Assembly: GCA_002049825.1 (NCBI GenBank)
Contig: MVCZ01000001.1
Location: forward strand, 1 to 26,061
Reading direction: 5' to 3'
DNA: 26,061 bases
From: Candidatus Zhuqueibacterota bacterium 4484_188
Lineage (GTDB): Bacteria; Calditrichota; Calditrichia; RBG-13-44-9
The notes beneath the pieces were generated by a model, which saw nothing but the letters and a program-made list of their open reading frames with translations, did no database searches and was not told the origin of the DNA. Position 1 is the stretch's first letter. Each line of letters starts with the position of its first letter. Shown in pieces: positions 1,925 to 24,159 of this stretch. The position numbers were made by a program, and so were the translations under genes.

Positions 1925-2000
1925 CTCCCTCCAGAAATCTTTTACCTGCTGCAGTTCGCTCGGTATTTTTCGATGTACTGTTGAATTTTGCCGGTCATTT

Positions 2001-2840
2001 TCAGGCGACTGTTTTTTTCTGCCATGCCCAGGAGAAAAACCACTTGGTCCGGGAAAAAGTGCCGGTTTTAATACCGGCAGGATTGTGAAAACCGCCGTTG
2101 CGACCTATCAGAACATCCTTGCTGGTGTCCCAGCCGCTGACCGGTGTGCTGACCGCGTGGAAGGCAATAAACGGCCAGTCGGTGTTCCAGTGACCCCGTT
2201 TAGCTGGCACTTCCCAAAGGGTTTTGGTTGCCAGCAGGGTTTGCAAGGACTGGTGGTAGCTGGTTTCGATGAACAGTTTATGAAATTCACGGGTGTTGTC
2301 CGGGCCGGCGCCTAAGTTCCACTCGAAATAGGAAGCAAGCTGCAATCGGCGTGGTGTGTTGCCACTGTTTTTCAGTGTCACCAGCCAGATTTCCAGCGGT
2401 GCCTCCTTTGCGGGAAAAAGAATCCATTCACTGCTCAAACCGGAAAACTGCTGGACAAACGTGCTGTAGCCCAACCCGTGGTGCACCCGGTACACATCGT
2501 ACGCCACCTGCATGGGCTGGAACGCCAGCGACCGCAATTCACCGGAATCGAGGTCGCGCAGGTAGAGCCACTTGCCCCAGTCGTCTCGAATCAGGTCCTG
2601 GTTCCAGCGGGTCAGGCGGTTCAGGTTGACATCGGTTTTCCAGGAGAATCCACCTCCCGCCTGGGTAACCACTAAACCGTAATCACCGTTAGAAATAATA
2701 TTCGCCCAGGGGCGCGGTGTATCCGGCCTGGTCACAATAAATTCATAACCGTCGTCAGAAAAATGTCCGTACTTGTTTGTAAAAGAATCGTAGCGCGCCT
2801 TGTTCATCGGTGTGTATTTTTCCTTTCTGCTAAAATCCAA
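2001..2840 (-). CDS. GH94 N-terminal beta-sandwich fragment
   Basis: 279-aa ORF, GH94-like up to ...HNPAGIKTGTFSRT, then an out-of-frame tail (KWFFSWAWQKKTVA*). The start could alternatively be the ATG at 2807. Confidence 0.7.
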   Translation of the reverse strand: MDFSRKEKYTPMNKARYDSFTNKYGHFSDDGYEFIVTRPDTPRPWANIISNGDYGLVVTQAGGGFSWKTDVNLNRLTRWNQDLIRDDWGKWLYLRDLDSGELRSLAFQPMQVAYDVYRVHHGLGYSTFVQQFSGLSSEWILFPAKEAPLEIWLVTLKNSGNTPRRLQLASYFEWNLGAGPDNTREFHKLFIETSYHQSLQTLLATKTLWEVPAKRGHWNTDWPFIAFHAVSTPVSGWDTSKDVLIGRNGGFHNPAGIKTGTFSRTKWFFSWAWQKKTVA

Positions 2841-3840
2841 ATCCTAATGAAAACCGCTGTGTTTGCTCTAAAATTCCGTAGTCAGCCCATGCATAGTCAA
2901 AATGCAGAGAATAACCGGAGAGGTGGAAGCGCAGGCCAGCGCCCAGCACCAATCCGCCCTCGGCATCCTGCAAAAACATGTTTCGGTATCCGCTGCGCAG
3001 AGCAATATTGTCAAACAAAAGCCACTCGGCACCTATGTTCAGGCTTTCGCCGTTATCATTCGGGTGAATCGCATCTAATACCATAAGAAATTGGTTGGAT
3101 TCACTGAATTTGAGCGGAACGGAAAAACCGACCCTGAACATGGTGGGAAGCGGAAAAAACTCGGTGCGCAACTGCGCCGGTAACTGGTCATTGTCGCCAT
3201 GTTTTGCCTGATTAAAATCGTAATCGATGTACAAATCCCTTCCGTCATAGGCTGCCTGGGGACCAAAATTGGAGATACTGGCACCCATGGTGGGTCCCTG
3301 CGGTGACAATTGGTACTGCACCCCAAGATTCAGTGAAACGTCGGTCAGGCTGCTATGCCAGATGGATTCGCGCAGGTAGTTCAATTGCATTCCTACTGAA
3401 ATGCGATCGGTGAGCATGCGTCCGATGCCCAATCCCATGGAAAAAGCGGTAACGGTGTAGCGTTCCCCGGTGCCCAGCGGCTGGGATACCGTTCGCACAT
3501 CAATCTCGCCGGAATTTAGTGCAGTCACCTGCATGAGCAGCGTTCCCAGAGATGGTACCCTGATTGCCGCACTACCGAAATTGTACTGAATATCCGCCAG
3601 CCATTTGCTGTAGGTAAACTGCACCGACGATTTTTTCAGACGACCCAGACTGGCCGGGTTAAAAAAAGCGGTAGCCGCGGCACCACTCAGCGATGCGCCG
3701 GCGTTTCCTAATGCCGCCGTCCGGGCGTCCGGTTCTATTTTCAGCACCTGCCCGATGGTGGTGCCGGTTTTGCTTTGTCCCAATGCCAGTGTCACCATAT
3801 AAAGAAGGAGTATCAAAAAAATGAAAAAAGGGTTTCGCAT
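2830..3840 (-). CDS. PorV/PorQ-family (UPF0164-like) outer-membrane beta-barrel, cassette copy 2
   Basis: 336 aa with signal peptide. N-terminal GQVLKIEPDARTAALGNAG...AFFNPASL resembles the PorV family signature, followed by amphipathic beta-strands and a C-terminal RFSLGFGF with terminal Phe. Confidence 0.85.
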   Translation of the reverse strand: MRNPFFIFLILLLYMVTLALGQSKTGTTIGQVLKIEPDARTAALGNAGASLSGAAATAFFNPASLGRLKKSSVQFTYSKWLADIQYNFGSAAIRVPSLGTLLMQVTALNSGEIDVRTVSQPLGTGERYTVTAFSMGLGIGRMLTDRISVGMQLNYLRESIWHSSLTDVSLNLGVQYQLSPQGPTMGASISNFGPQAAYDGRDLYIDYDFNQAKHGDNDQLPAQLRTEFFPLPTMFRVGFSVPLKFSESNQFLMVLDAIHPNDNGESLNIGAEWLLFDNIALRSGYRNMFLQDAEGGLVLGAGLRFHLSGYSLHFDYAWADYGILEQTQRFSLGFGF

Positions 3841-4096
3841 TGTCTCTTCCGTAAAAATTGATTTTACATACCTTGTTTCATTCTTAACCGAATGAATAGG
3901 ATTTGCAAGAGAATTTGGATCAGCTTTCTAAGTTTCAGGTTCCCGGTTGGAAATTGTCAAATTCATTCAACACAGATATTAATTTTAACCCTGAACCTTT
4001 GAACCTTAAAACTCTGTAGTTTAAAAATCATTTTCATCCTGCCACGTCAGTGGCCCCTTCGGGGTTCTCCTGTCGAAAAAAAATCTTCTAAAAATA

Positions 4097-7000
4097 CTAC
4101 TTAATAATGGCAAATTTGCCAATATAGGTACCCACCTCCTTGCTATCCACATGGTAGAGATACAAACCGGGCGCCACCTCCAGGTTATCTTTGGTTCGCA
4201 AATCCCAGGCAACAAAGCCCTGGTTTGTTGAACCGTTTTGGTGAAGCGTCTGCACTAATTCGCCGTTAATGGTAAAAATCCGAATAGTGCACTGGCGGGG
4301 TAAATTGCGAAATTCAATCCGCCGTTCGCCCCTGCCGGAAACAGCAAACCGCTGCGGTTCGAAACTGGCAGCGCCGACGTAGGGATTGGGCACCACGTAC
4401 GGCTTTTCTAAAAACGCTGATTTTGCCTTTTGCGGATCCACAAATTGCCCGGTAGTTTTGAAGGAAAAAATATCTTTCCGGCCCAGCGGCACCTGCAGTT
4501 TCAGATGATACTCATCGCCATCTGCCGGCGGCTGAATGAGAATACCCATCATGCCGGTTGTGTCCAAGCTGATATTCCAGGTGGAACGCGGTACAGTCGG
4601 TTTGTCGCGCGTGTAGGTCAGCACCTCGATGTAATCTCCCGGCTGGCTGAGGGTGCCGGAAGTGTCGGTGTCCAGAAAACGGAAATCCAGTTGCAAATTG
4701 CCGGAATCTCCTTTGGCAATAATTTTGAATTTTGCCGGTTTGGCGTACAGCGGACCGATTCCGGCAATAGAGGTGTCCAACGGCTGATTGCTGAAAATAA
4801 TTTGCAGGTTTGCCGGAAAACCGGGCCGCCGCAGGTTGGTGGGCAGCGCCCTGGCATAGCGCACTTTCAGCCGGGCGTTGGTCGGGCTGCCGGCAGTAAA
4901 ACCGGAAATGAGCGTGTCGATTGAGACGACCTCAGGTGTAAAAATGTTGGGCAGAAGCCCCAGCCCCACAGGTCCGCCGCCAGAGCCGTCAAAAACCCGG
5001 CCGGTGGTAAACAGTGTGTCAGCCGTAGTAACATCGTACAATCCGTAGCTGGAAGCGCGCACGCTGTCTTCTAGGCTCTCAAAATGAATCTCAAAAGTGT
5101 GGTGGTCAGGCACCAGCTCCGGGTTTATTACCTCTACTTCCACGGTGCCAGTGCCGCTTCCGGCAATGTGTTCCACCGCGCTTGCCTGCGCCGGCACATA
5201 GCCCAATACCGGTCGGTTTGGGCGCACTTCCACTGCATTTTTGGGAAAAATAATACCGCCGCGCAGGGTCCGGCTGACCGCAATAGCATTTTCTGAAGGG
5301 TAAATTTCCAGTGAGTCCGAACCTTTGTCGTAAGCGGTGACCGCGTAATAGTAGAGCTGGCCGTTAGTGGCTGTGGTGTCTTTGAAAGTGTGCACAATGC
5401 CGGTATTTTCTCCCAGGAAGTAGGCAACGCCCTCCACGGTGGTTTGCGAAAAACCTTCGATATCGTCAATTAAGTCAAACTGGGCCAGCGGTCGCCCGTG
5501 TCCGATGGGTCCCGAGCCGGTGCCGGTGGTAATGACCTGCGGGTCGAGAAAAGTCGGGTCGGTACTGCGGTAAATGCGATAGCCTTCGAAATCGTTGGTG
5601 CTGGTCACCGGGTCAAAGGCGCGTTCGGCACGGTCGTCCCAGCTCAGGGTCACATAACCGTCACCCGTTGAAGCCTGCAGAGTGGGCATGGGCGGCGGGA
5701 CGGCAAACTGGTAATTAGCTTTATAAATTTGCTGAACCACCTTGGTGGTGTTGCGCAGTTCGCGCAAATCTTTTCCAAACCCCAGTGCCAGGCTAAAGCG
5801 CTCGGTGCGACCAGCCTCCAGTTTAAAGGGACCGGAGGCAAAAAAGAATCCGATATTGTAATTTTGCACCAGCGGCGGATCGAATGCCGAATCCTGGGAG
5901 GTGAATTTTTCGTACAGGCGCCGGGGCCACTGCCGACCGTCGTCAAAAAATACGATGTCATCAATGGCTGTGGAAGGCGAACCGGCACCGGCTCGAATAC
6001 GATTCATCTTAAAACCGGTCAGCCCAATCTGGTCGGATTCGTCCACATCCGTTTTATCGAAATTGGGTTCACCGCGGGTCGGCTTGCCGTCTTTCTCGCC
6101 GCTGTCTTTCTGATTCTCTTTTGAAGCAAAAACGCCATCGGCACCGGTGTCGTTAAATTCCGCCACCCAATCCATGTCTTCGTCACCGGTCCACCAGGAG
6201 CCGGCACGGTAAGCCGGGCGACGTTCCAACGGTCCAAAGAAATTTTTAAATTTCTGCATGTCGTAATGGGATTCCACGTAGGTGCGAATGGCATCCTGCC
6301 CATCGATGAGTTGCCCCGGACCGCTATCCCGCCGTTCATCGGTTACCCCGTTTTCATCGTTATCAATACCGTCAAAGGGATTGCCGGGGGTTTCAATGTA
6401 GGAATAACCTAAATAACCTGTGGGTCCCTGCACGCCATTTCCGTTTTTGTCCCAGGTGTACACCAGGTTCAGCCCGGCTTCTTTATCGAAAAAAGCATTG
6501 TCGTCGTCCGATTCCGGGATGCCATCCATCCCAATCGCCGAACCGCCAACGCCGGAATCCATGTAGAGTCCGAAAATAATGTTGTCGTCGTAAGTAGTGG
6601 TTCCTTCGTTGGTAATATCGTAGTGCCAGAAAATCACGTTTCCGGCCTGCGGATTTGCCCACTGGAAACCACGCTGTTCAATGCGCAGCCCAAGACCGTG
6701 CCGGGTGCTGTCACGGTAGTCGGAATGAAACAGCCAAGCGTCGTAAAAATCGTCGTCATACACAATAAAACTTTCCTGGTCAGCGCCAGGCGCTTTCCCG
6801 AAATAGCCATTCCAGGAACCGCTCCAGCCAGGGTCATCGGGATCGTTCAGTTTATCAATCCACTGGTCGGGCCAGGTGCGCGGGTCGTTGCTCATGGCAA
6901 CCGAACGTCCCTGGTTAATGACTGGGTCGGGCTGAAAATATCCCGGCCGCGGTTCAAAACGCATCACCCGGTTGTAGAAGGGGCTTATGCCCTGGCGCTC

Positions 7001-7357
7001 CCGGTAGCCGGTTTCCATAATGTAAGCGGGTGTACCGTCTTCCTGGATAATTTTTACCAGCACGAATGGAGTAATGCCGTCGCTGTAGTTCTCGCCGGAG
7101 CCCTTGGGCACTTCTACCGAGTGAAACACGCTGAAATCAACGCGCAGCGGGTCCGGCGGATAATCGCCCACCATGCCGTAATTGTAAAAAACGGTGCGGA
7201 TGCGGTTGGCGTCGTGCATGCCTTCCCGTTCAGCATCTACCCGCCCGCGAAGTTCCGGGGGAACCACCGGCTGCAGGTCCTGTGTCCAGCCATCGGCTGT
7301 TAAAACCAGTGCAAGTGCAACTGCCAGAAAAATATTTTTCAGATAAACAAATCGCAT
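4097..7357 (-). CDS. Uncharacterised ~1086-aa secreted protein (Asp-rich DxDxNG motif, FN3-like domain, atypical T9SS/FlgD-Ig-like CTD), cassette copy 2
   Basis: The ORF track starts at TTG 7372; ATG 7357 (MRFVYLKNIFLAVALALVLTADGWTQ) gives a cleaner signal peptide. Contains GIDNDENGVTDE, an FN3-like segment PPPMPTL..GDGYVTLSWD..FEGYRIYRS..YYYAVTAYD, and a C-terminal VVPNPY..RIEFRNLP..TIRIFTINGELVQTL..WDLRTKDNLEVAPGLYLYHV..GKFAIIK. Alignable by eye with 13409..16549. Confidence 0.9.
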   Translation of the reverse strand: MRFVYLKNIFLAVALALVLTADGWTQDLQPVVPPELRGRVDAEREGMHDANRIRTVFYNYGMVGDYPPDPLRVDFSVFHSVEVPKGSGENYSDGITPFVLVKIIQEDGTPAYIMETGYRERQGISPFYNRVMRFEPRPGYFQPDPVINQGRSVAMSNDPRTWPDQWIDKLNDPDDPGWSGSWNGYFGKAPGADQESFIVYDDDFYDAWLFHSDYRDSTRHGLGLRIEQRGFQWANPQAGNVIFWHYDITNEGTTTYDDNIIFGLYMDSGVGGSAIGMDGIPESDDDNAFFDKEAGLNLVYTWDKNGNGVQGPTGYLGYSYIETPGNPFDGIDNDENGVTDERRDSGPGQLIDGQDAIRTYVESHYDMQKFKNFFGPLERRPAYRAGSWWTGDEDMDWVAEFNDTGADGVFASKENQKDSGEKDGKPTRGEPNFDKTDVDESDQIGLTGFKMNRIRAGAGSPSTAIDDIVFFDDGRQWPRRLYEKFTSQDSAFDPPLVQNYNIGFFFASGPFKLEAGRTERFSLALGFGKDLRELRNTTKVVQQIYKANYQFAVPPPMPTLQASTGDGYVTLSWDDRAERAFDPVTSTNDFEGYRIYRSTDPTFLDPQVITTGTGSGPIGHGRPLAQFDLIDDIEGFSQTTVEGVAYFLGENTGIVHTFKDTTATNGQLYYYAVTAYDKGSDSLEIYPSENAIAVSRTLRGGIIFPKNAVEVRPNRPVLGYVPAQASAVEHIAGSGTGTVEVEVINPELVPDHHTFEIHFESLEDSVRASSYGLYDVTTADTLFTTGRVFDGSGGGPVGLGLLPNIFTPEVVSIDTLISGFTAGSPTNARLKVRYARALPTNLRRPGFPANLQIIFSNQPLDTSIAGIGPLYAKPAKFKIIAKGDSGNLQLDFRFLDTDTSGTLSQPGDYIEVLTYTRDKPTVPRSTWNISLDTTGMMGILIQPPADGDEYHLKLQVPLGRKDIFSFKTTGQFVDPQKAKSAFLEKPYVVPNPYVGAASFEPQRFAVSGRGERRIEFRNLPRQCTIRIFTINGELVQTLHQNGSTNQGFVAWDLRTKDNLEVAPGLYLYHVDSKEVGTYIGKFAIIK

Positions 7358-7421
7358 TTTAAAACATTCCAATTCTTCTCTTACATTTTATCATTTATCA
7401 AACGGTAGCTTTTTCTGTCAT

Positions 7422-10082
7422 TTATTTCTTTTCTACCGTGAATCCGATTTCGATCCGGCGCGGTTCATAAAATCGTGCCGGGTTCAGCAGTTGTACCCGG
7501 TCGGTGGCGGGAAACTGGGAATAATCGGGACTTCCGGTAGTGGCGAACACAAATCCGTTCACAAAATGGGTATTTAACAGGTTGAACACCCGCAGGTACA
7601 GGCCGCCTTTCAGCGGTCCCCATGCCACATATTTTTCCGCCCGGACATCCAACAGGGCGTAGGACGATTTGAGCCCTGAATTGGTTTCCAGGTCTGCGCC
7701 ATAGCCGGAACCGATTTGCGGCGTGTAGGGCTGTCCGCTTCCCAGCCGGAAGATAGCGCTGAGAGTGTAATTGTTGGCAACTGCGAAAATGGCAGTAGCG
7801 TTCAGGGTGTGCCGCTGATCCCAGTTAAAGGGAATGTCACGCGGGCGGGGGTCTTTGCCACTGGCAGCGCGGATGGCAGTTTCGCGTGGATCGCTGGAGT
7901 TGCCGCGGGCAAACTGCAGGGTGTAATCCAGCGTGGTGCTGATCGGTCCGATGGCCCGCTGGTCGAAGGCAATGGTGGTGCCGTACACACTGCCGAAATC
8001 TACATTGGTAAAGCGGGCATATTCGGCAGCCGCGTAGGTGGTGACAAATTCGGTTCCCAGCAAATCCCGGATATCTTTGTAGAAGAAGGACAGGTCTAAC
8101 CCCAGGAAACTGGTCAGCGCCTGTTTCAAACCGAATTCATACTGGATGGTGCGTTCCGGTTTCAGGTCCGGGTTGCCCATGACGCCGTAACTTATGCCCC
8201 CCTCCTGCAACTGGTCGAGCACCGAATAGTCGGCATTGTTGTACAGCAGTCCCAAACCGGGCATCTGGTAGAAATGCCCGTAGGAAAAGTAGAGCGATGC
8301 CGCGGCAGACAGCGGGAAACTAAAGCCGAGACGCGGTGCCAGCGCTGATTTAATGATGGTTTTTCGCAGCACTGATTTTGGGGCACCGGCAATGGCATTC
8401 GCCGGATTTTGCAAATCGTCGGGCACCCGCGCATTGGCGTCAAAATATTCCAGACGCACACCGGCACGCAGCACCAGGTCTTTCCACTCCACCCGGTTCT
8501 GCAAATAGGCATTAAACTGACGCGGGTAATAGGTCTGCACGCCCGGCTGCCGCGGAAGGTTCTGCCTCGGCTGAAGAATTTGCACGCCGCCTACTGTTGT
8601 GGGCACAATGAAACCTGGGCTGCCAAAGGATATCTCCGACGCCTGAAATTCAACCCCGCTCTCCACCAGGTTCGAACGGTTCACCTGCCAGGTCGCTGCC
8701 CCTTTCACAATGCCGTTGTTGGATTTCTGGATGAACCGGCTTAAATCCACCCCCTGCACCACTGATCCATGTTCGTAATTCGGATCGCCCAACGGCTGTC
8801 CGGCTTCCAAATAACGCGGATCAAATAAATCCTCGTAGGCATAATCCGAGTAGTCAAAATAGTTTTGGCGCAGGTTTAATTTGTAAAACAATGTACGGGA
8901 AATGGTATGCGTTATGTCCAGCCCATGGGATACCGAAAATGTTTTTTGTTTAGTAATTCCCTGCGGGTTCAGCCGAAACGCATGGTTGTAGCGGGTTTGG
9001 CGTACATCATTAAGCAACGCCTGATAACTGAGCTGAACTTTTTCCAGCGATTGGTTGCTCAGTTTAAACTGCCCGCTCCACTCCCGCCACGTTTGCATGG
9101 TCACCAGTTTTCCATCGCCGGTAGGACGAAATTCCCTTGTTTCGAAATCGCTGGAATCGGTGGGCAGGAAGCGCCGTTCACCGAAAAGGTAGCCGTCGTT
9201 CAGATAGCGCCTGGCGCTGAGAAAATAGGTGGTGTTGGGAATAAACAGCGGTCCGCTGAGCATAAGCTGGTAATTCCGGATGGCAGCAGGATTGAAAGAA
9301 TTGTTGTGCGGGTAGCGTTTGGAATCTGTGGTATAAAAGTCTCCGCTGTACACTTCGCTGCGCCAGTCAAATCTATCAGAACCGCTGCGTAACACCGCAT
9401 TCACTACCCCGGACATCGCCTGCCCGTATTTGGCGTCAAAAGTGCCGCTGATAACCTGCACTTCTTCTAAAACCGAGCGATCCAGTTGCAGGGTAGAAGA
9501 ATTGTCGTAAGGGTTGTTCACCGTGACACCATCGACCTGATATTGAACCTCGCCGATTCGTCCTCCCCGGAAATGACCATCGATCACCCCGGCTTGCAGG
9601 TTGACAATCTCGGTTAAATTCTGTACCGGCAGCACTTCAATTTCTTCTTTCCCGACTGTGGAAACCGAACTGGTCTGGTTAAATTCCACAATGGGACGGC
9701 TTGCGGTTACCACCACGGTTTCGCCCTCAATCGCTGCGCTTTTCAGCCTCACATTCAGATTGGTGGTGCGGTCAGCATTTACCCGAAATTTTTCGACCAC
9801 CTGTGTCCGGTAACCGACGTAGGAAAACCGCACTGTGTAAACTCCGGCGCGAACATTCAGGATCAGATAAAATCCGTCCGTATCGGTGGCGGCGCCCAGG
9901 TTGGTTCCCTCCAACTCGATGTTTACCCCAATTAAGGGATCGCCATCGGTGGAAGTGACCACGCCGGCCAGCTTTCCGGTGGACTGGCTTCTGCCGGTGG
10001 TTACCAGAAGCACCAGAAACAGCAGTGCCGGAAACCAATATTTCCGGTAAATAGTAGAAATTTGTGACCACACACTTTGCAT
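7422..10082 (-). CDS. TonB-dependent receptor with N-terminal carboxypeptidase-regulatory-like domain, cassette copy 2
   Basis: 886 aa with signal peptide. TGKLAGVVT..DGDPLIGVNI..GAATDTDGFYLILNV..GVYTVRFSYVGY N-domain; plug GHFRGGRIGEVQYQVDG and VISGTFDAKYGQAMSGVVN; barrel motifs PRLGFSFP, YFSYGHFYQ, GNPDLKPERT, VFNLLN. Confidence 0.9.
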   Translation of the reverse strand: MQSVWSQISTIYRKYWFPALLFLVLLVTTGRSQSTGKLAGVVTSTDGDPLIGVNIELEGTNLGAATDTDGFYLILNVRAGVYTVRFSYVGYRTQVVEKFRVNADRTTNLNVRLKSAAIEGETVVVTASRPIVEFNQTSSVSTVGKEEIEVLPVQNLTEIVNLQAGVIDGHFRGGRIGEVQYQVDGVTVNNPYDNSSTLQLDRSVLEEVQVISGTFDAKYGQAMSGVVNAVLRSGSDRFDWRSEVYSGDFYTTDSKRYPHNNSFNPAAIRNYQLMLSGPLFIPNTTYFLSARRYLNDGYLFGERRFLPTDSSDFETREFRPTGDGKLVTMQTWREWSGQFKLSNQSLEKVQLSYQALLNDVRQTRYNHAFRLNPQGITKQKTFSVSHGLDITHTISRTLFYKLNLRQNYFDYSDYAYEDLFDPRYLEAGQPLGDPNYEHGSVVQGVDLSRFIQKSNNGIVKGAATWQVNRSNLVESGVEFQASEISFGSPGFIVPTTVGGVQILQPRQNLPRQPGVQTYYPRQFNAYLQNRVEWKDLVLRAGVRLEYFDANARVPDDLQNPANAIAGAPKSVLRKTIIKSALAPRLGFSFPLSAAASLYFSYGHFYQMPGLGLLYNNADYSVLDQLQEGGISYGVMGNPDLKPERTIQYEFGLKQALTSFLGLDLSFFYKDIRDLLGTEFVTTYAAAEYARFTNVDFGSVYGTTIAFDQRAIGPISTTLDYTLQFARGNSSDPRETAIRAASGKDPRPRDIPFNWDQRHTLNATAIFAVANNYTLSAIFRLGSGQPYTPQIGSGYGADLETNSGLKSSYALLDVRAEKYVAWGPLKGGLYLRVFNLLNTHFVNGFVFATTGSPDYSQFPATDRVQLLNPARFYEPRRIEIGFTVEKK

Positions 10083-10140
10083 TTTTTAAGCACCTGTGAA
10101 TTGGTAAAAACAGTTCAACACATCCGCTTTTGACGGAACA

Positions 10141-10177
10141 GGCGGGAGACTCTTACACCACTGCTTGCCCACCCGCC
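10141..10177 (-). terminator. GC-rich intercistronic stem-loop just downstream of the CBM9-like gene (mRNA stabiliser or partial terminator)
   Basis: GGCGGG (10141-10146) and CCCGCC (10172-10177) are perfect inverted repeats, extendable by G-U pairs on the minus-strand RNA. No U-tract follows. Confidence 0.4.
10150..10161. repeat. 12-bp direct repeat CTCTTACACCAC, copy 1
   Basis: Identical to 12347-12358; both copies are intergenic and flank the 10187..12082 gene. Confidence 0.7.
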
Positions 10178-10186
10178 GGAACCGTT

Positions 10187-12082: not shown

Positions 12083-12346
12083 TTTTCTTCTCCCTATACT
12101 TCTTTTAAGATTTTAAAATGGTAATTCTATACCCGATTTATTTTTTTGTTTCAAAAAGATCAAGTTATAGAAAATTCCCGGAATGAGCCCGCCACGATAA
12201 AATACTCATTTTCCAAATTCGAATTATGCCAAATGTTTGTTGAAAAAATGAAGCAGGTAATCCTCTACTCCGTTTCAGCACCTCAACATTTTGTTTCTCT
12301 GTAATCGGTCACTTCTCCGGAACTCTGTTTGTTGCCACGCCGACCG

Positions 12347-12358
12347 CTCTTACACCAC
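12347..12358. repeat. 12-bp direct repeat CTCTTACACCAC, copy 2
   Basis: Identical to 10150-10161; begins a few bp past the PorV-family stop codon at 12364. Confidence 0.7.
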
Positions 12359-12363
12359 ACTAC

Positions 12364-13398: not shown

Positions 13399-13408
13399 AG
13401 CAAACTTC

Positions 13409-16400
13409 TCATTTAATCAGTGCGAACCGTCCGATTTTTTCGCCAATATCCGGGGCATCGACGTGGAAGATGTAAACACCCGGCGCAATATCGAGTCTGT
13501 CTTTGGTGGTTAAATCCCAGGATTCCGAACCGTCCAGCATGTCGGAATTGTGTTCCAGGGTTTTCACATGATCGCCGCTGATAGTAAAAATGCGAATAGT
13601 ACAGCGCTGCGGCAGGTGAATAAAAAAGATTCTCCGCTCTCCTCTACCGGTAGAAAGCAACCGTCGTGGTTCCCAGCGTGCCGCCACCACGTAGGGGTTG
13701 GGTACCACCGCAATTTTGTCCAGATCGGTTTTTGCTACCTGGCGGTCTATTTTTGCCGCCCGGCTGGTGAGGCGATAGACATCAGCACTACGGAAAGGGG
13801 TTTTTATCTGGATGTGCAACACATCACCGTCTTTTGGTAGCACGGGTGTCGCTCCGCCATAAGGCTCTAAAAAATGCACCCGCCAGACTTCCCGCGGAAA
13901 ATTGCCATCCATAACCAGAATACGAATGTATTCGGTTGAGTCATTTAATGGAGCCGAGATGGTACTGTCGCGGGTCGATTCTCGCGGTTCCTCAAATGCA
14001 AAGCGCGCTTTTTTGTTTTCATAGAGGTCCCACACCGTAAAGTTCACCACAAATCCCTGACTGAAAAAGCGGCTGGTGTCTGGCTCACCAAAACGAATTT
14101 CGTAACTGGAAGGATAGCCCGGACGCCGGTGAGGAAAATGGTAGCGGTGCTCGACCTTAATGGGCAAATTGGCATCGCCTTTAGTCCAGCCGGAATTTTG
14201 CCCGTCCCAATCGATACTGTCGGTAAAAACCAGCAGTCGCATGCCGTCGAACACCGGGTTGGTGTCTTCGCCGCGCACACTGAAAGAATTGCGTACAATG
14301 GTGTCCGGCTGCGAGGGATCAGTCACATCTGCCATGTGATACATAATGGTATCCGGATGGGTGGTGTCATCAAAACTGACCTCGAAGATGCGGTTTTCCT
14401 GCACCTGCAACGGATCCAACACATCAATCCACAGGTTGCCGGTAGCAAATCCGGAAATATGCTCAATGGAATCCTTTACCCCGGCTTGGCGGAATCCCGC
14501 TGCCGGCGCCTGTGGGGTAACTGCCACAGTGTTTTTGTCCAGCCGTAAATTGCCATTGATGTCCTGCACAATTACCCGGCTGCACTCCGAGGGATACATG
14601 CTGGAATCCGGATCGCCCCGGTCGTAGGAAACCACCGCGTAATAGTAGGTTTTTCCGTTCATCACATCGGTGTCAGTCCAGGAGTGTTTTAAGCCTTTGT
14701 TGTCGCCCATGTAAATTTTCAGTCCCTGGAAATCCAGCGGGAAAAAGCCTTCCACATTATTCCGCAGATCAAACTGGGCAGCCGGCTTCAGGAAAGTTGG
14801 TTCGCCAAACGCATTGGTTACAATGCGGGCATCCAAAAATCCCGGATCGCTGCTTTTGTAAATTTTATAGCCCTCAAAATCGTAGGGTGGATTGGAGAAA
14901 GGATCGTAGCTGCTTTCTGCCACATCGTCCCAGTAGATGGTCACTTTTTTATCGCCGGGGACCGCCCACACTTTGGATTTCTCCGGTGGTCGGGCAAAAT
15001 TATAATTGTTATTGTAAATTTTCTGAACTGTTTTTTTGTTGCGCCGGATGTCCGCCAGGTTATCGCCGAACACCAGGCAAACTGAGAAACGTTCCGTTTG
15101 CAGTGTTTTCAGGGGAAAAAGTCCGGAACCATAGAGAAAGGCAATATTATCGTTGCCAAGCTGATCGTCGAAATGGCTGTAGGAAACACGATCCCAGATG
15201 TCTTTATCCCGGCGGAATTCAACACCGGAACCGATACTAAAAACATCGAAAGCAGTTAAACCAATTTGATCGGATTCATCCTTGTCAGTCGCGTCAAAAT
15301 TGGGTTCACCGGGGGTGGGCACACCGTCGCCTTCGCCCATGTCTCCGGTGCCGGCAAGCCCGTCGGCGCCAACATCGTCACGTTCCGGGTCCCAATCCAG
15401 GTCGTTGTCAATCAAATCGCTGCGGTCTTCATCAATCATTTCGTCAATGCGACCATCGCCATTATTATCCTGTCCGTCGGCATATTTGAAACCAATGTGA
15501 AAGGCTGCCTCGTCAATCAGGCCGTTTCCATTATCATCAATCCCATTCTCCGGCAGTTCACCCAGAATCATGTTCGCGGTAATCACCGGGCTTCCGCTTT
15601 CGCCGTCCTCGTCATCGTCAATACCGTTAAAGGGATTTCCCGGGCTCTCCAGAAAAGCGTAGCCGCACCAACCGGTTGGTCCCCAACCGCCCTGCCCCAA
15701 ACCATTTGTGTCCCATGAATAGGTAATATCATTTCCCAGGTCAAAGGAAGCGTTATCGTCATTGGAATCGTGCTGACCGCCAACACCCACATCTACATAC
15801 ATGCCGAAAATCATTTTGGGGTAATTGGTAGTGCTCTCGTTTGTAATATCGTAGTGCCAGAAAATCAAGTCTTCAGATTGCACATTAGACCACTGAAATC
15901 CCCGCACGCCAACTTTCAGCCCTAACCCCCTTCTGCTATGGTCTGTGGAATCGGGATAAAAATCCTGCCCATCATCTGAATCGTCGTCCATGACGAAGTA
16001 GCTTTCCTGGTCGGCATTGGTGCGCCTTCCGAAGTAACCGTTCCAGAAACCGTTCCAGCTGGCATCCTTATCTGCCCATGAACCAGGCCAGGAAATCGGG
16101 TCGTCGTTCAGGGCAATCTTATCGGCGTTTGGATTGGCATAGCCCGGGCGCGGCTGCCATCCGCGTTCCACACCTTCGGGCGAAACATCCATGCGCTCCC
16201 GGTAACCAGCTTCGCAAATATATAGAGTATCCCCATTATGATTGACTGTCTGTGTAACCACAATCGGGGTGATTCCGTCCATGTAAGAATGACCGGATCC
16301 CCGTGGCCACACGCCGGAAGGCTCGCGTCCCCACCAGGCAACTTCACCGAAATTGTAAAACAGGGTTTCCACCAGGTTGCCGTTATGAATGCCCACTTTG

Positions 16401-16549
16401 CGGTATTTTCGGTTGCCGCGCATCTCTTTGGGCACATACACCTGTGGGATTACGTTGCTTGCAAAAAGAATCAGCGCCAGGAGAATGAGCCATTTTCTGA
16501 CCGGTAGCTTGGTGAAAAGTGTAAATTTTTTTGCTTCTGAATCTGACAT
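13409..16549 (-). CDS. Uncharacterised 1046-aa secreted protein (several Asp-rich DxNxNG/DxDxDG repeats, FN3-like domain, atypical T9SS/FlgD-Ig-like CTD), cassette copy 1
   Basis: Signal peptide; repeats GIDDDEDGE, GIDDNGNGLIDE, GQDNNGDGRIDE; FN3-like VWAVPGDKKVTIYWD..FEGYKIYKS..YYYAVVSYD; C-terminal VVPNPY..LPQRCTIRIFTISGDHVKTL..WDLTTKDRLDIAPGVYIFHV..GRFALIK. Confidence 0.9.
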   Translation of the reverse strand: MSDSEAKKFTLFTKLPVRKWLILLALILFASNVIPQVYVPKEMRGNRKYRKVGIHNGNLVETLFYNFGEVAWWGREPSGVWPRGSGHSYMDGITPIVVTQTVNHNGDTLYICEAGYRERMDVSPEGVERGWQPRPGYANPNADKIALNDDPISWPGSWADKDASWNGFWNGYFGRRTNADQESYFVMDDDSDDGQDFYPDSTDHSRRGLGLKVGVRGFQWSNVQSEDLIFWHYDITNESTTNYPKMIFGMYVDVGVGGQHDSNDDNASFDLGNDITYSWDTNGLGQGGWGPTGWCGYAFLESPGNPFNGIDDDEDGESGSPVITANMILGELPENGIDDNGNGLIDEAAFHIGFKYADGQDNNGDGRIDEMIDEDRSDLIDNDLDWDPERDDVGADGLAGTGDMGEGDGVPTPGEPNFDATDKDESDQIGLTAFDVFSIGSGVEFRRDKDIWDRVSYSHFDDQLGNDNIAFLYGSGLFPLKTLQTERFSVCLVFGDNLADIRRNKKTVQKIYNNNYNFARPPEKSKVWAVPGDKKVTIYWDDVAESSYDPFSNPPYDFEGYKIYKSSDPGFLDARIVTNAFGEPTFLKPAAQFDLRNNVEGFFPLDFQGLKIYMGDNKGLKHSWTDTDVMNGKTYYYAVVSYDRGDPDSSMYPSECSRVIVQDINGNLRLDKNTVAVTPQAPAAGFRQAGVKDSIEHISGFATGNLWIDVLDPLQVQENRIFEVSFDDTTHPDTIMYHMADVTDPSQPDTIVRNSFSVRGEDTNPVFDGMRLLVFTDSIDWDGQNSGWTKGDANLPIKVEHRYHFPHRRPGYPSSYEIRFGEPDTSRFFSQGFVVNFTVWDLYENKKARFAFEEPRESTRDSTISAPLNDSTEYIRILVMDGNFPREVWRVHFLEPYGGATPVLPKDGDVLHIQIKTPFRSADVYRLTSRAAKIDRQVAKTDLDKIAVVPNPYVVAARWEPRRLLSTGRGERRIFFIHLPQRCTIRIFTISGDHVKTLEHNSDMLDGSESWDLTTKDRLDIAPGVYIFHVDAPDIGEKIGRFALIK

Positions 16550-16591
16550 CGCTAAAATCTTGCCTTTTTGATTTCGGTAAAAGAAAATTGC

Positions 16592-19240
16592 TTACAAATC
16601 CAGGCGGAGGCCGAAAAGCACTTTCCGCGGTTCGGAATAGAATTCCGGGCGTTGCAGCCACTCTCCCAAGGTGTTGACATGAGCGTTTCGTTCCCCGGTG
16701 TAATGGCTGACCAAGGAATACCCAGCGCGACCGGTATCCTGGTACACATCCAGTTCATTGCGCCGGTCGAACAGATTATACACTTTCAGGAAGAGTTCAA
16801 ACCGTTGTCCCCAGAGCGGGAGAATTTTTGACAGGCGTAAATCCACGTTGTAATTAAACGGTTTGCGTCCGCTGTTTTCGAAAGTCGTTTCCAGACTCTG
16901 GATGGCCGGGGTATAAGGCAAACCGCTCTGGAACTGCCCGATTATTCCGGCAGTCAGAATTTTGGGATGACTGTAGGAAAGCGATAAATTGACAGTATGG
17001 GTTTGATCCCAGTTTAAAGGGACAACCTGGATATTGCTTTTCTTGGGCGGTTCGGATTGTTGGTTGTAAAATTCCTGATTGGGATCGGAAGCATTGCCCT
17101 CCGCTACCTGGAAGGTGTAATCGAAAGAAACGGTCACGTGGTCCGACGCTGTAGGTCGTTTATTGAGCGAGAAGGTGATCCCGCGAATATTTCCGTAATC
17201 GCGGTTCTCATAACGGGCATAGCGGTCGCCGCCGCCGGCATTGTATATTTTGGTACCTAACAGATTCCGCGCGTCTTTGTAAAAACCGGTTACGTCAATC
17301 CCCACCTGTGGGAAAATTACCTGCTGAATGCCGAATTCGTAAATGATGGTTGTTTGCGGTTTCAAATCGGCATTGCCCAACAAAGTACTCAGTCCGCCAG
17401 GATTGACCGCAAAACGGGGATTTTGGTAGAGAAACTCATAAGGCGGTATCTGGAAAAAATGTCCGTAGGAAGTGTGGATGACCCCGGCTGAGGAAATTGG
17501 AAATGCCAGACCGATGCGCGGGCTGAACTGATGTTTTACCGAAGCTTGGTTAAAAGCGCTGTCGGGATCGTTCAGAAAGCGGGGCACCACACCGCGGGAA
17601 TCGAAGTAATCGTAGCGCAAACCGATGTTAACGGTCATGTTATTTAACTCAATTTTGTCCTGCAGGTAAGCAGACGCCTCCACCGCATTGTGATGATATT
17701 TACCGCTGTTTAAAAAAGAAAATGTCGAGAAAATACCTCCGTTAGGAATCCCGTGGTAATTTGCCTCAAAATTATTTTCTTCAATCCGGGTGTGCTTGAT
17801 TTCAATTCCGGATTTTAATTGATGGATTTTGCTCACTTGCGAGGTAATGTCGAATTTCCCATTGTTCACTGTGGAGGATCGATTCTCATGAATCATGTTG
17901 CTGCCACCGGTTAAAAAACTAAAAGCATCCTCACGGGTCATCAATAGTTCCGGGTTCACATACCGGGGATCATTGGGGTCTTCGTACAAATAGGATTTAA
18001 ACTGGTAGTCGAAATGCGACAGCTTGAGGGTATAAAACGTCCTGGGCGACAGAGTGTGATTCAGGTTCAACATATTGCTGATGCCGTAGTTATAATTGGT
18101 TTTATCACCGTCCGGGTTCAGGTGGAAAAGATGGTTGTAAAACCGCCTGGAAAAATTGTTCCCCAACAGGCTGTAACTGAGCTTTGCGGTATTAGAAAGC
18201 TTGAAGACCAATTTCAGGTTTCCGTAATACTCCCGGCTGAAATTCATGGGCACCGGTTGATTATCGCCGGTCTGTTCGATATAGACACCATCCTGTTCAA
18301 AATGTGCTGAATCCGAAGGATTGTATCTGCGCACGCCGTAGAGCCAGCCGTCGTTATAAAAGTTGCGCAGGGAGAGATAATAACCCACCCCTTTTTTTAT
18401 AAGAGGCAGCGGGCCGGTAATATAAAACTGAAGATTATAAATATCTACCGGTTTTACGGTGTTTATATTAAAGAATAAAGAAGATTGGGAACTCAGGTAA
18501 TCCCCGGAATAAACCGTTAGCCCAGTTCTGGTCTGATCTTCCGGGTCTTTGGTCACAACTTCCACAATGCCGGACATTACCTGCCCATATTCCGCATTGA
18601 AGGTACCACTGATTACTTTCAGTTCCTGAATGTTATTCTGGTCGATATCGATGGCTTTTTTTCCCGAAAATGGATCGGTCACCGAAACGCCATCCACCAG
18701 GTAAGCGATTTCGCTGGAGCGTCCGCCGCGGATGTGCAGCTCACCGTTTTTATCTGCCACCACCCCGGCTTGCAAAACCAGCAGGTCCTGCAGGTTCTCC
18801 ACCGGGATATTTTCAATTTCGTCCGACGAAACCGAAGATGCGGTTGCGGTAAGGTCTTTCTGAATAATCGGGCGTTCAGCTTCCACGGTAATGATTTCTC
18901 CCAGCTCCAGCGAAGCCGGTTGCAGGTGGAAATCCACCCGGGTGCTGCGGTCAGCTTGAACGGCGACTTGTGTCATCCGCACATCCTGGTAACCCAACAT
19001 GCTGGCGGTAAGGATGTAGGTGCCTGGCGGAAGATTCAGGATTAAAAAATCGCCATCGACATCGGAAGCCGCACCAAGATTCGTGCCTTCGATAATCACA
19101 TTGGCACCGGGCAGTGGTTCACCCGAAGAAGAATCAGTTATCTTACCGGCTATCTTTCCGGTCTGACCGGCAAATACCCATCCCGAGCAGAGGAAAACAA
19201 TGAGAAAAAGTATGTCAAAAAATCTGAGACTATTTTTCAT
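16592..19240 (-). CDS. TonB-dependent receptor with N-terminal carboxypeptidase-regulatory-like domain, cassette copy 1
   Basis: 882 aa with signal peptide. GQTGKIAGKITD..GEPLPGANV..GAASDVDG..PGTY..SMLGY; plug LHIRGGRSSEIAYLVDG and VISGTFNAEYGQVMSGIV; barrel motifs FSPRIGLAFP, SYGHFFQIP, GNADLKPQTT, VYNLFD. Confidence 0.92.
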   Translation of the reverse strand: MKNSLRFFDILFLIVFLCSGWVFAGQTGKIAGKITDSSSGEPLPGANVIIEGTNLGAASDVDGDFLILNLPPGTYILTASMLGYQDVRMTQVAVQADRSTRVDFHLQPASLELGEIITVEAERPIIQKDLTATASSVSSDEIENIPVENLQDLLVLQAGVVADKNGELHIRGGRSSEIAYLVDGVSVTDPFSGKKAIDIDQNNIQELKVISGTFNAEYGQVMSGIVEVVTKDPEDQTRTGLTVYSGDYLSSQSSLFFNINTVKPVDIYNLQFYITGPLPLIKKGVGYYLSLRNFYNDGWLYGVRRYNPSDSAHFEQDGVYIEQTGDNQPVPMNFSREYYGNLKLVFKLSNTAKLSYSLLGNNFSRRFYNHLFHLNPDGDKTNYNYGISNMLNLNHTLSPRTFYTLKLSHFDYQFKSYLYEDPNDPRYVNPELLMTREDAFSFLTGGSNMIHENRSSTVNNGKFDITSQVSKIHQLKSGIEIKHTRIEENNFEANYHGIPNGGIFSTFSFLNSGKYHHNAVEASAYLQDKIELNNMTVNIGLRYDYFDSRGVVPRFLNDPDSAFNQASVKHQFSPRIGLAFPISSAGVIHTSYGHFFQIPPYEFLYQNPRFAVNPGGLSTLLGNADLKPQTTIIYEFGIQQVIFPQVGIDVTGFYKDARNLLGTKIYNAGGGDRYARYENRDYGNIRGITFSLNKRPTASDHVTVSFDYTFQVAEGNASDPNQEFYNQQSEPPKKSNIQVVPLNWDQTHTVNLSLSYSHPKILTAGIIGQFQSGLPYTPAIQSLETTFENSGRKPFNYNVDLRLSKILPLWGQRFELFLKVYNLFDRRNELDVYQDTGRAGYSLVSHYTGERNAHVNTLGEWLQRPEFYSEPRKVLFGLRLDL

Positions 19241-19279
19241 GAATTTTCAGTGCACAACACTTATTTGGAAATTATAATG

Positions 19280-19310
19280 AAGGAGGACATCTTTAGAAAA
19301 TATCCCCCTT
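19280..19310 (-). terminator. Intercistronic stem-loop downstream of the CBM9-like gene (mRNA stabiliser or partial terminator)
   Basis: Minus-strand RNA AAGGGGGAUAU-UUUCUAAAG-AUGUCCUCCUU forms an 11-bp stem with two G-U pairs. Those pairs form only on the transcribed strand. No U-tract follows. Confidence 0.55.
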
Positions 19311-19337
19311 GAACAGAACTAACCTCATGACCGGTTC

Positions 19338-21107
19338 TTACCGCATCAGCATCATTTTCCTGGTTTTGCTGAAATTGGGAGTGGTCATTTTGTAGAAATA
19401 TAACCCACTGGCAACCTGGTTACCATGCTTATCCATTCCGTTCCAGGTGATGGTATGGCTGCCGGCCTGTTGTTTCCCATCGAAGAGCGTCGCAATTTTG
19501 CTACCCAAAATATTGTAAATTTCAATCGTGACCGGAGATACGGTTGGTAACGCATACTGAATAGAAGTAGTCGGGTTGAATGGATTTGGGTAGTTTTGCG
19601 CCAGCTCGAAATGATCGATAACGCCGGCGTTGTTCCCGGAGCCGATATCGGTCGTTTGGCTGGAAAGCACCACCTCGCGATACATGTAGTATTTTTCGAA
19701 GTTCAGGTCCGCCCATTGTGTTCCCCACCATTGCGGGGCATAATCTGAGACATGCAGCTGGAATGTGTCTGCAGAACTATAATCAAGATCCCAGATCACC
19801 GCGCTGAGCTTCACCGTGTCGCCATTGCTGTAACCGAACATATCGGTGTGGACCAACACTTCCAGCGAATAACCGGCATCTGGACCGCCGGTTTCGGTAT
19901 GCGTCACGGTTCCTGGTGGTTCGTAAGACGCACCTTCTGCCCCGCCAGTGGGTACATTACTATTTAACTGGAATTCAGCACCGGCGCCAACCGTATTGCC
20001 AAAATACATATTTTTTATTTCCATCCGATCTCCCGGACCCGGTATCACTCCTTTTAAAGTCATCCAGAGGAACAGACCGTCGGCTTCCCATCCCGGAGAC
20101 CACTCACAAACCGAAGAATCGTTGGACGTAACACCGATATAGAGATCGGTTCCATTATGGGCAAATTTAACTGTGGCAACACTTTGGTCGGTGTATTCAT
20201 TCAGTGTGTCTCCCCACTGCATGTAAAATCCGCCGGAACTGGTAGTCGAATTCTTATAAATCTGGACATAATCCGCATCGCTCCAGAAACTTTCGTTTAA
20301 TTGCCCATCGAGGGTGAAAGCCTCAGTTGTTTTAATGGCAATTTTGGTGGGCGGATCAGCCAGCCGTAAAATGCGCATATCGGGTCCCCATTCGCTGCCC
20401 CACCAGGCTTTGTAGTAGGCACCAACCGCTCCCCAGGGATCCATATTATCCACATATCCGTCGGGGTCGAAAATATTCATCAGCACCGGAATATCGGTGT
20501 CATTTTCGGTGTAGCCCAAATGATCCAGGTGAATGACCATTTCTGCTGTGTAGCCGGAATCCACTTGGGAAGTATCGTTCACAATGGTGGCAGGGTGTTT
20601 CCAGGCGGCTCCCTGACCGGACCCCGGGTACAGTGCCGGTTCTTCATAATGAATATCGGGATTCACTCCAGAGAGATTAAAATAGAGCTTATACTCCACA
20701 TCAATACCATTGGCGTCCTTGATCTTCATGAACAGCCCATCGCCTTCCCAGCTCGAACCAAATTTACCTACCGATTGGTCATCAGACTGCAATGAGATAT
20801 AGAGATCCATTCCATAATGCAGAATCCGGACAATCGTAGTGGTTGTGTCGGTGTAAGTTGGTTTTACTTCGATTCCCTGAGTCACATCATATTCCACATC
20901 ACCAGGCTTGAAATTCGCCCGATACACCAGGTGGTCGAAACGCCGCTGCCAATCGGTTTCGGTGAGTGCACCATCAATGGTAATGGGATTTTCCGCTGAC
21001 TGGATTTGCAGTAACGGGGAGTCAACATGGCTGTTGCCGCTGATTCCATTACCAGTAAATGTCAGCACCAATACTATTGCTGCCATTACAGTAATTAGTT
21101 GCTTCAT
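19338..21107 (-). CDS. T9SS type-A/FlgD-Ig sorting-domain protein with two CBM9/DOMON-like sugar-binding modules, cassette copy 1
   Basis: 589 aa, strong SD (AAGGAGG), signal peptide. Modules ITIDGALTETDW..SGYTAEMVIHL and FTLDGQLNESFW..GYSLEVLVH. C-terminus QNYPNPFNPTT..IYNILGSKIATL..TWNGMDKHGNQVASGLYFYKM..RKMMLMR. Confidence 0.85.
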   Translation of the reverse strand: MKQLITVMAAIVLVLTFTGNGISGNSHVDSPLLQIQSAENPITIDGALTETDWQRRFDHLVYRANFKPGDVEYDVTQGIEVKPTYTDTTTTIVRILHYGMDLYISLQSDDQSVGKFGSSWEGDGLFMKIKDANGIDVEYKLYFNLSGVNPDIHYEEPALYPGSGQGAAWKHPATIVNDTSQVDSGYTAEMVIHLDHLGYTENDTDIPVLMNIFDPDGYVDNMDPWGAVGAYYKAWWGSEWGPDMRILRLADPPTKIAIKTTEAFTLDGQLNESFWSDADYVQIYKNSTTSSGGFYMQWGDTLNEYTDQSVATVKFAHNGTDLYIGVTSNDSSVCEWSPGWEADGLFLWMTLKGVIPGPGDRMEIKNMYFGNTVGAGAEFQLNSNVPTGGAEGASYEPPGTVTHTETGGPDAGYSLEVLVHTDMFGYSNGDTVKLSAVIWDLDYSSADTFQLHVSDYAPQWWGTQWADLNFEKYYMYREVVLSSQTTDIGSGNNAGVIDHFELAQNYPNPFNPTTSIQYALPTVSPVTIEIYNILGSKIATLFDGKQQAGSHTITWNGMDKHGNQVASGLYFYKMTTPNFSKTRKMMLMR

Positions 21108-24131: not shown

Positions 24132-24159
24132 TTTCGGATATTCCTCTCAGGAAACCGGG

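Follow-up and report, generated by a model that had tools for sequence, protein, structure and literature searches.

The window analysed here, 26,061 nucleotides of contig MVCZ01000001.1 from the metagenome-assembled genome (MAG) of Candidatus Zhuqueibacterota bacterium 4484_188, carries all its genes on the minus strand and contains one four-gene order twice, as cassettes A and B. Each cassette encodes a lead protein with tandem modules of CBM9 fold and a type IX secretion system (T9SS) C-terminal domain (CTD) of type A, a TonB-dependent receptor, a large protein of ~1050 amino acids and an outer-membrane barrel of the PorV/PorQ family (Table 1). The textbook model of polysaccharide capture in Bacteroidota and their relatives is the SusC/SusD pair; to our knowledge, there is almost no SusD in sister groups that are large and of ecological importance, such as SAR406/Marinimicrobia of the ocean and the Ignavibacteria and Calditrichota of sediments, hot springs and bioreactors. 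We consider it probable, though short of firmly established, that each cassette specifies a T9SS-assembled, lipoprotein-free outer-membrane unit for the capture and import of glycans. Evidence comes from the gene content, the protein folds, a conserved gene order, the linkage to carbohydrate-active enzymes (CAZymes) and the co-divergence of the four genes.

Gene order was compared in 83 related loci, which remained of 85 fetched after two near-duplicates were dropped. Of 84 evaluable cases, 78 had a receptor gene immediately upstream of the large gene; the next gene downstream was of the PorV family in 72 of 83, and the second gene upstream encoded a CTD-bearing protein in 55 of 70. Median gaps between the genes were 12 and 14 bp. 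The loci stem from at least eight phylum-level groups, including Calditrichota, Ignavibacteriota, Marinimicrobia/Fidelibacterota, Stahlbacteria, Kryptoniota, Krumholzibacteria and Rhodothermota. A LacI gene was present in 31 of the 83, and GH94 in only 23; other CAZyme neighbours were GH3 (14 loci), T9SS-tailed GH16 (11), GH2 (9), GH9 (5), GH5, GH13, GH81 and CBM20/6/35, while sodium:solute symporters (SSF) and ABC systems represented the transporters. A first-pass annotation of this DNA, made from the letters alone, had suggested a survey of other genomes for the order receptor-large protein-barrel and for its association with CAZymes; both are conserved across the 83 loci, with varied CAZyme sets. 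At least seven modules occur in the MAG itself, two on contig C121 and others on C154, C170, C26, C28 and C13.

The lead genes of the related loci encode Por_Secre_tail in 42 of 51 cases and a detectable CBM9_1 domain in 20 of 51, so that the four-gene unit, beyond the trio of receptor, large protein and barrel, is general as well; CBM_4_9 was found in 4, and no catalytic (glycosidase) domain is among the commonest families of these 51 genes. In many loci lacking GH94, a gene for a SurA-like peptidyl-prolyl isomerase (PPIase; Rotamase_2, ~510-545 amino acids) stands right after the barrel gene, often followed by an ABC importer (among others L026, L028, L038, L044, L046, L052, L067-L069 and L075). 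The window contains no PPIase.

The large proteins of both cassettes matched no Pfam or NCBIfam family. Their own family is extensive: over 4400 members were found among 90%-identity clusters, every one annotated as hypothetical, from KSB1, Calditrichia, Delongbacteria, Ignavibacteria, Marinimicrobia and others, and a profile search of 1.84 billion representatives returned 1661 matches at E <= 1e-30 and 5054 at E <= 1e-10. The AlphaFold2 (AF2) model of large protein A, built on a 41-sequence alignment (pLDDT 80.5, pTM 0.69), is almost all beta strand. As full-length Foldseek searches gave Ig/FN3 chains of low TM (0.05-0.2), domain-level VIA alignment was used instead. Residues ~40-300, resuming at 430-520, were modelled as a galactose-mutarotase-like beta-supersandwich that matches the non-catalytic N-domains of GH15 glucoamylase and glucodextranase at Z 19-20 (best 19.6), GH94 and GH65 phosphorylases at Z 16-18 and aldose 1-epimerases at Z 12-13; the protein lacks the (alpha/alpha)6 catalytic domain that the matched enzymes have. 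The supersandwich is interrupted at ~300-430 by an Asp-rich insert of low model confidence, which probably binds calcium, as its DxDxDG-like motifs suggest. An FN3-like region (~520-650) and variable beta domains (~700-930) follow. The conservation profile is high in the N-domain, the FN3-like region and the tail and drops in residues 700-900; acidic, aromatic, His and other invariant residues include E182, D189, R206, R216, Q219, W220 and H622.

The C-terminal domain of large protein A (936-1046) superposes on the CTD of PorZ (5m11) with Z 12.6 and a root-mean-square deviation of 2.0 Å over 92 residues at 26% identity. Concordantly, the last ~70 residues of large protein B gave weak matches to the C-termini of PorZ and PorU. 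The type-A CTD models (TIGR04183/PF18962) matched neither large protein, though the fold is a T9SS CTD sandwich nearest to that of PorZ. Matching fold clusters in AlphaFold DB are all uncharacterised or named just 'T9SS sorting domain-containing protein'. We rejected three identities for the large protein: SusD (no family match, all-beta, no SusD fold), a known enzyme (no match to a Pfam or NCBIfam enzyme family) and a full-length homologue of PorZ or PorU (no family match; a structural match to PorZ at domain level in the tail). The HMM and structure searches that the first-pass annotation had named as a way to unmask a known enzyme or a SusD fold thus revealed neither.

Both barrels exceed the cut-off of 90 bits for the PorV/PorQ family (NF033709), barrel A with 244.3 bits (residues 33-344) and barrel B with 185.7 (28-336). 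They stay below the equivalog cut-offs for PorV (NF033710; 100.9 and 64.9 bits for A and B vs 250), PorQ (NF033711; 94.8 and 89.2 vs 220) and PorV2 (NF052325; 97.3 and 21.4 vs 325), and by these model scores they form a separate branch of the family. The PorP/SprF model matched neither barrel at E <= 0.01 in the Pfam and NCBIfam scans. Structure prediction places the tail of large protein A (930-1046) on barrel A (27-344), with a complex score of 0.93 in three runs, while the best of three controls reached 0.00. In the calibration of this score, 55 of 80 solved complexes and 3 of 110 mismatched pairs attained the mark. The interface between large protein and PorV paralogue that had been anticipated from the sequence is hence predicted for the tail and its cognate barrel.

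Tail and barrel are also paired by gene order in two genomes. In the MAG of the window (1.74 Mb, 62% complete), 6 of the 7 PorV-family genes above the cut-off directly follow a gene with a PorZ-like tail. The remaining one, on contig C117 (L090, 3020-4921), encodes 633 amino acids with an N-terminal PorV/PorQ-family barrel (121 bits) and C-terminal tetratricopeptide (TPR) repeats and lies downstream of a gene for an unannotated 1027-aa protein. The complete 6.3-Mb Calditrichia chromosome that carries loci L045 and L036 encodes 19 proteins with PorZ-like tails and 25 PorV/PorQ-family genes above the cut-off, and 16 of the 19 tails are directly followed, on the same strand, by a PorV-family gene. 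The chromosome has about seven full-length copies of the module. About a dozen tailed proteins, in shorter tail-and-barrel pairs, lie outside the large-protein family, which implies that the device of tail plus barrel serves other passengers too. The first-pass annotation had regarded PorV as normally encoded apart from its cargo. This overlooks dedicated barrels with uncleaved tails already described: the tail of PorZ is retained and bound to PorQ, and that of PorU is retained and bound to PorV (PMC10202324, PMC5562754).

Both receptors contain PF13715, PF07715 and PF00593 (plug E 6.7e-12 and 4.2e-8, barrel E 4.4e-29 and 9.9e-31) and qualify by these domain calls, plug plus 22-strand barrel, as TonB-dependent receptors. 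Against the SusC/RagA model TIGR04056 they scored 75.5 and 88.0 bits, far from the cut-off of 368, with alignments confined to model positions 2-191, which correspond to the N-terminal extension plus the beginning of the plug; in receptor A the matching part is restricted to residues 29-219. Judged by model score, the receptors share the SusC-type N-terminal domain but are outside the SusC family. The earlier remark that they lack the SusC plug signature therefore needs qualification: it holds in that both fail the family model, and it does not hold for the start of the plug, which aligns to that model, nor for the CarboxypepD_reg extension, which is present. A Pfam scan of the eight cassette proteins detected no member of the SusD family, which, together with the fold of the large protein, agrees with the annotation's view that no cassette gene resembles SusD. 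PF07980 (SusD_RagB) had no match in the 62%-complete MAG and a single one in the 6.3-Mb Calditrichia chromosome. Under the strict definition of a polysaccharide utilisation locus, adjacent susC and susD with CAZymes, the locus does not qualify: CAZymes, a regulator and a receptor are present, susD is absent and the receptor is not SusC by model.

The lead proteins carry type-A CTDs by TIGR04183 (45.6 bits for lead A, 34.2 for lead B; cut-off 23). Lead B matches PF06452 (CBM9_1; 26.7 bits vs a cut-off of 23.4) and PF18962. Lead A has no Pfam CBM9 match; in its AF2 model (pLDDT 66), residues 253-483 match the CBM9 of Thermotoga Xyn10A (1i82; Z 17.0, 179 of 189 residues) and residues 29-250 the putative carbohydrate-binding protein 4jpq (Z 13.8), and its neighbours in the ESM Atlas are CBM9_1 clusters. 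A sequence search of the CBM9-like protein against the PDB returned nothing usable. Neither lead protein has a catalytic domain. This assigns the lead proteins to CBM9, B by Pfam and A by predicted fold, and sugar binding is predicted for both.

The first-pass annotation had described the four-gene order as occurring twice with matching sizes, and we found the eight open reading frames (ORFs) on the minus strand accordingly (Table 1). BLASTP alignments between the cassettes were essentially full-length and collinear for the lead proteins (26% identity, E 6e-26), receptors (36%, E 5e-159), large proteins (38%, E 0) and barrels (37%, E 7e-77). DNA-level similarity was limited to stretches of 30-65 nt with ~70% identity, spaced ~9.2 kb apart. 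The cassettes are real and old paralogues, and the annotation was right that they have diverged too far for a recent duplication.

Phylogenetic analysis gives this divergence a different meaning from the local tandem repeat that the annotation had described. A tree built from 88 large proteins places 25 of 26 proteins from GH94/GH144 loci in one clade of 28 (support 98), whose remaining three members lie on contigs of 4-6 kb. On this tree, the GH94 label requires 5 changes vs 22.6 for shuffled labels, and none of 500 shuffles was as low. A deep split divides the clade into 13 rows of A-type, where copy A sits with Calditrichota loci, and 15 rows of B-type, where copy B sits with loci of Calditrichia and Ignavibacterium. 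In 26 of 26 loci, every evaluable cassette gene, whether lead, receptor, large gene or barrel, was nearer to the window copy of the same type. This concordant split of four genes indicates that the cassette evolves as one unit. None of the 83 sampled loci pairs A with B; each lineage occurs there singly, and the window unites, by this placement, both beta-1,2-glucan lineages. Recent tandem duplication was rejected on the basis of the 26-38% identity and the separate ancient lineages, each single in other genomes. That A and B are kept for different chain lengths, or for linear vs cyclic glucans, is speculation.

In the mechanism that we propose, the type-A tail would direct the export of the tandem CBM9 protein, which would then be on display at the surface to bind glycan, and the TonB-dependent receptor would take in oligosaccharides. 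The large protein would be exported via its uncleaved PorZ-like tail, which would stay plugged in the private barrel encoded downstream, beside the receptor; there it would bind glycan and pass it on, a role like that of SusD or of surface glycan-binding proteins with an unrelated fold. Supersandwich, FN3-like region and tail would then be scaffold and docking parts, and glycan recognition would fall to region ~700-900 and the CBM9 protein. For the window this translates into a putative route in which secreted GH144-type enzymes cut beta-1,2-glucan, the cassettes import the oligomers, the ABC system carries them to the cytoplasm and GH94 degrades them by phosphorolysis. A more far-reaching version, which we put forward tentatively and hold to be somewhat less likely than not to be right in full, is that receptor, large protein, private barrel and CBM9 protein form a stable lipoprotein-free 'utilisome', parallel to SusCD and the main glycan importer of Ignavibacteriota, Calditrichota, Marinimicrobia and allied phyla. 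On this view, the receptor would be capped by the large protein, whose variable domains would determine substrate specificity, and the retained tail with its private barrel would represent a general anchoring principle.

Several points weigh against the capture and import unit. Docking of the tail on the barrel is predicted by modelling, and its score may partly reflect model memory of solved PorV-tail complexes (e.g. 8glk, 8gl6); such a prediction cannot tell which member of the barrel family binds. The surface location of the large protein, its binding of glycan and its contact with the receptor are steps that we infer. What is most conserved in the large protein does not differ between loci for different glycans and cannot, for this reason, be the specificity determinant. 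The ratio of large protein to receptor is not strictly 1:1, as locus L078 has two large genes per receptor and contig C13 two short versions. Finally, a T9SS substrate is defined by export that depends on SprA/Sov and PorKLMN, with the machinery encoded in the genome. The MAG encodes a PorU sortase (548 bits, with neighbours in frame) and ~30 type-A tails; searches for SprA_N and GldM in this 62%-complete genome had no match, but as they had none in control genomes either, they carry no information on these two genes.

Among the alternatives, the most serious is that the large protein acts as a SusD-like lid over the receptor in a 'pedal bin' arrangement, where the barrel would replace the lipid tail as hinge or anchor; this is the version that the first-pass annotation had inferred. 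By analogy, the position of the large gene would fit, since it follows the receptor gene as susD does (78 of 84), often with overlapping or nearly overlapping stop and start codons. An N-terminal supersandwich conserved whatever the substrate is what a receptor-docking face would look like, SusD is absent or nearly so from the carrier genomes, and non-SusD lids of non-SusC receptors exist in Bacteroides (bioRxiv 10.1101/2023.03.17.533168). However, those known alternate lids are lipoproteins, and the large protein, which is roughly double the size of SusD and consists of several all-beta domains, is more reminiscent of surface glycan-binding proteins or utilisome enzymes. The loci with two large genes per receptor (L078, C13) also sit uneasily with a lid. 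Overall, we regard a true lid as possible and on the unlikely side.

A role without any ligand capture appears improbable. In it, large protein and barrel would constitute a locus-specific attachment or assembly platform, comparable to PorZ-PorQ or to the surface dome anchored by BamG, that installs or tethers further T9SS cargo of the locus, such as CBM9 proteins and glycosidases with CTDs, or helps the receptor to assemble. The tail is indeed most like that of PorZ, type-A CTD enzymes, which have to be attached at the surface, abound in the loci, and the SurA-like PPIase right after the barrel in many related loci (11 of 89 neighbours scanned) recalls the BAM complex of Bacteroidota, which uses a FadL-like barrel as base for surface proteins including PPIases (PMC12578637). 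Yet the large protein has no PorZ-like beta-propellers, its N-domain being a supersandwich of the type found in carbohydrate enzymes, and its phylogeny tracks the CAZyme set of the locus, which suggests substrate specialisation; moreover, a single PorU is encoded elsewhere in the genome, and no PPIase in the window. Still less probable, in our judgement, is an undescribed surface enzyme (a lyase, a mutarotase-like or a glycan-remodelling enzyme) that merely shares the operon of the receptor. Galactose-mutarotase-like supersandwiches can be catalytic, as the aldose 1-epimerase matches recall, and many acidic, aromatic and His residues are invariant. But these same residues are conserved in beta-1,2-glucan loci and in laminarin-, cellulose- and starch-type loci, which makes a single chemistry unlikely, and the best structural matches are the non-catalytic N-domains of GH15, GH65 and GH94 enzymes without the (alpha/alpha)6 domain; no Pfam or NCBIfam enzyme model matched.

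Table 1. Genes of cassettes A and B and of their flanks, in window coordinates
Feature	Position	Strand	Length	Description
Sugar ABC importer	22448..25455	-		solute-binding protein 25455-24160 and permeases 24131-23253 and 23260-22448; PF13416/PF01547, PF00528
LacI-family regulator	21145..22182	-		directly upstream of cassette A; PF00356, PF13377
Cassette A gene 1	19338..21107	-	589 aa	two CBM9-fold modules and type-A T9SS CTD
Cassette A gene 2	16592..19240	-	882 aa	TonB-dependent receptor; N-terminal CarboxypepD_reg, plug and barrel
Cassette A gene 3	13409..16549	-	1046 aa	unannotated large protein with signal peptide, putative surface location
Cassette A gene 4	12364..13398	-	344 aa	PorV/PorQ-family outer-membrane barrel, predicted holder of the gene 3 CTD
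Cassette B gene 1	10187..12082	-	631 aa	tandem CBM9-like, type-A CTD
Cassette B gene 2	7422..10082	-	886 aa	TonB-dependent receptor
Cassette B gene 3	4097..7372	-	1091 aa (from TTG 7372)	large-protein paralogue, B-type clade
Cassette B gene 4	2830..3840	-	336 aa	PorV/PorQ-family barrel
GH94 phosphorylase, two ORFs	458..2840	-		2840-2001 supersandwich, PF06165, E 4.6e-62; 1924-458 catalytic, PF17167, E 2.4e-99
GH144-type (PF10091) protein	3..461	-	153 aa (N-terminal)	truncated by the window edge

The flanks of the cassettes, a block of sugar ABC importer and LacI regulator on one side and GH94 and GH144 enzymes on the other, had been recognised in the first-pass annotation and were confirmed. 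The truncated ORF at the window edge shares 49% identity (E 2e-44) with the N-terminus of a protein from Calditrichia that has PF10091 in its C-terminal part (E 1.5e-71), and this homologue sits directly after GH94. The GH94 gene of the window passes through three frames within ~100 bp (1900-2060, minus strand; changes near 1930-2050). On contig C154 of the same MAG, the genes for receptor, large protein and barrel are each broken into two adjacent ORFs. Since the C154 genes are likewise split, assembly indel errors are at least as likely an explanation of the GH94 frame changes as a true pseudogene.

Scans of the cassette region for promoters, terminators and repeats gave counts at background, and no shared operator or mobile-element repeat flanking the copies was found in them. 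In cassette A, a hairpin of 14 pairs followed by a T-rich tail (19280-19310, minus strand) lies in the 97 bp that separate the CBM9 gene from the receptor gene; it may be an attenuator that allows an excess of the binding protein. The large gene and the barrel gene of cassette B are 256 bp apart (3841-4096), and neither an ORF nor a repeat was detected in this stretch; the corresponding gap of cassette A has 10 bp, and the median over 72 loci is 14 bp. A variant module on contig C13 (L086, 3042-10583) encodes a receptor of 914 aa, two short proteins of 613 and 602 aa and then one PorV-family barrel. What these short proteins have in common with the large family is limited to the PorZ-like tail and the FN3-like part.

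Two cultured bacteria have loci that resemble the cassettes. In Ignavibacterium album, the SGL (beta-1,2-glucan) cluster IALB_1177-1187 comprises GH94, GH144 homologues, a GH35 transferase, an ABC system and a TonB-dependent transporter; the enzymes were characterised, the transporter was marked as speculative in the drawing, and neither large protein nor barrel was discussed (PMC8861115). An I. album MAG locus in our set (L057) has a B-type cassette between GH94 and GH144 homologues, followed by GH35 with a GLMA-like second domain, and the published cluster is of the same locus type, differing in that its description covers the enzymes only. The xylan locus of Rhodothermus marinus (Rmar_1067-1073) is listed in a published table as LacI, two CTD-bearing xylan enzymes, the TonB receptor Rmar_1070 and the 'hypothetical' Rmar_1071 and Rmar_1072, one with a Por tail, and the table offers no interpretation of this order (Table 1 in PMC6987092). 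Going by that gene table, it looks like the order of the cassette; as R. marinus is cultured, the module could be tested there.

The cassettes are abundant and tied to CAZymes, and the proposed unit would explain how glycans are imported in SusD-poor groups. It would supply the missing outer-membrane step of the beta-1,2-glucan pathway studied enzymatically in I. album, could serve as a marker for predicting glycan-utilisation loci in these phyla and would widen the role of PorV/PorQ-type barrels from parts of a secretion machine to general, gene-linked surface anchors. We found no description of this architecture in the open-access full-text literature, an absence that is no proof for the literature as a whole. 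New here are the A and B lineages, the co-divergence of four genes, the CBM9 fold, the assignment of the supersandwich and the PorZ-like tail, the tally of tails and barrels across one complete genome and the connection with the I. album cluster.

Known systems share single features with the cassettes. The type-B arrangement, in which a CTD cargo gene is followed by its own PorP/SprF-like barrel gene that is needed for that cargo (e.g. SprB-SprF of Flavobacterium johnsoniae), differs in that the cassette barrel belongs to the PorV/PorQ family without a PorP/SprF match, the tail of the large protein is by model neither type A (no TIGR04183) nor CHU_C/type B, and the cargo is linked to a TonB-dependent receptor and not to gliding adhesins. 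Like SusC/SusD (RagA/RagB) and the utilisomes, the cassettes have a CarboxypepD_reg receptor gene followed immediately by the gene of a putative surface partner, reside in regulated CAZyme loci with extra non-catalytic binders, and the partner phylogeny tracks the CAZyme set of the locus. They depart from those systems in a receptor that falls short of the SusC/RagA model, an all-beta partner of ~1050 aa compared with the TPR-rich SusD lipoprotein, T9SS tails on the surface parts instead of lipid anchors, a third and obligatory gene for a PorV/PorQ-type barrel, and a distribution mainly outside class Bacteroidia.

The nearest published ideas are the alternate lipoprotein lids of Bacteroides and PorQ-PorZ anchoring. 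The former are non-SusD partners beside non-SusC receptors, proposed as caps (Price et al., bioRxiv 10.1101/2023.03.17.533168); the adjacency of partner gene and receptor gene is the same as in the cassettes, but none of those lids has a T9SS tail or a private barrel. In PorQ-PorZ and PorV-PorU, the attachment complex of Porphyromonas gingivalis, the CTD is kept and bound by a 14-strand PorV/PorQ-family barrel as surface anchor, as is predicted for the cassette. There, however, the barrels and passengers are part of the secretion machinery, whereas the cassette passenger is unrelated to PorZ or PorU, occurs in many copies per genome, each with its own barrel, and is encoded in nutrient-uptake loci beside a receptor. 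The cassette appears to combine the logic of TonB-dependent glycan uptake with anchoring of the PorQ-PorZ type, a combination that seems to be undescribed.

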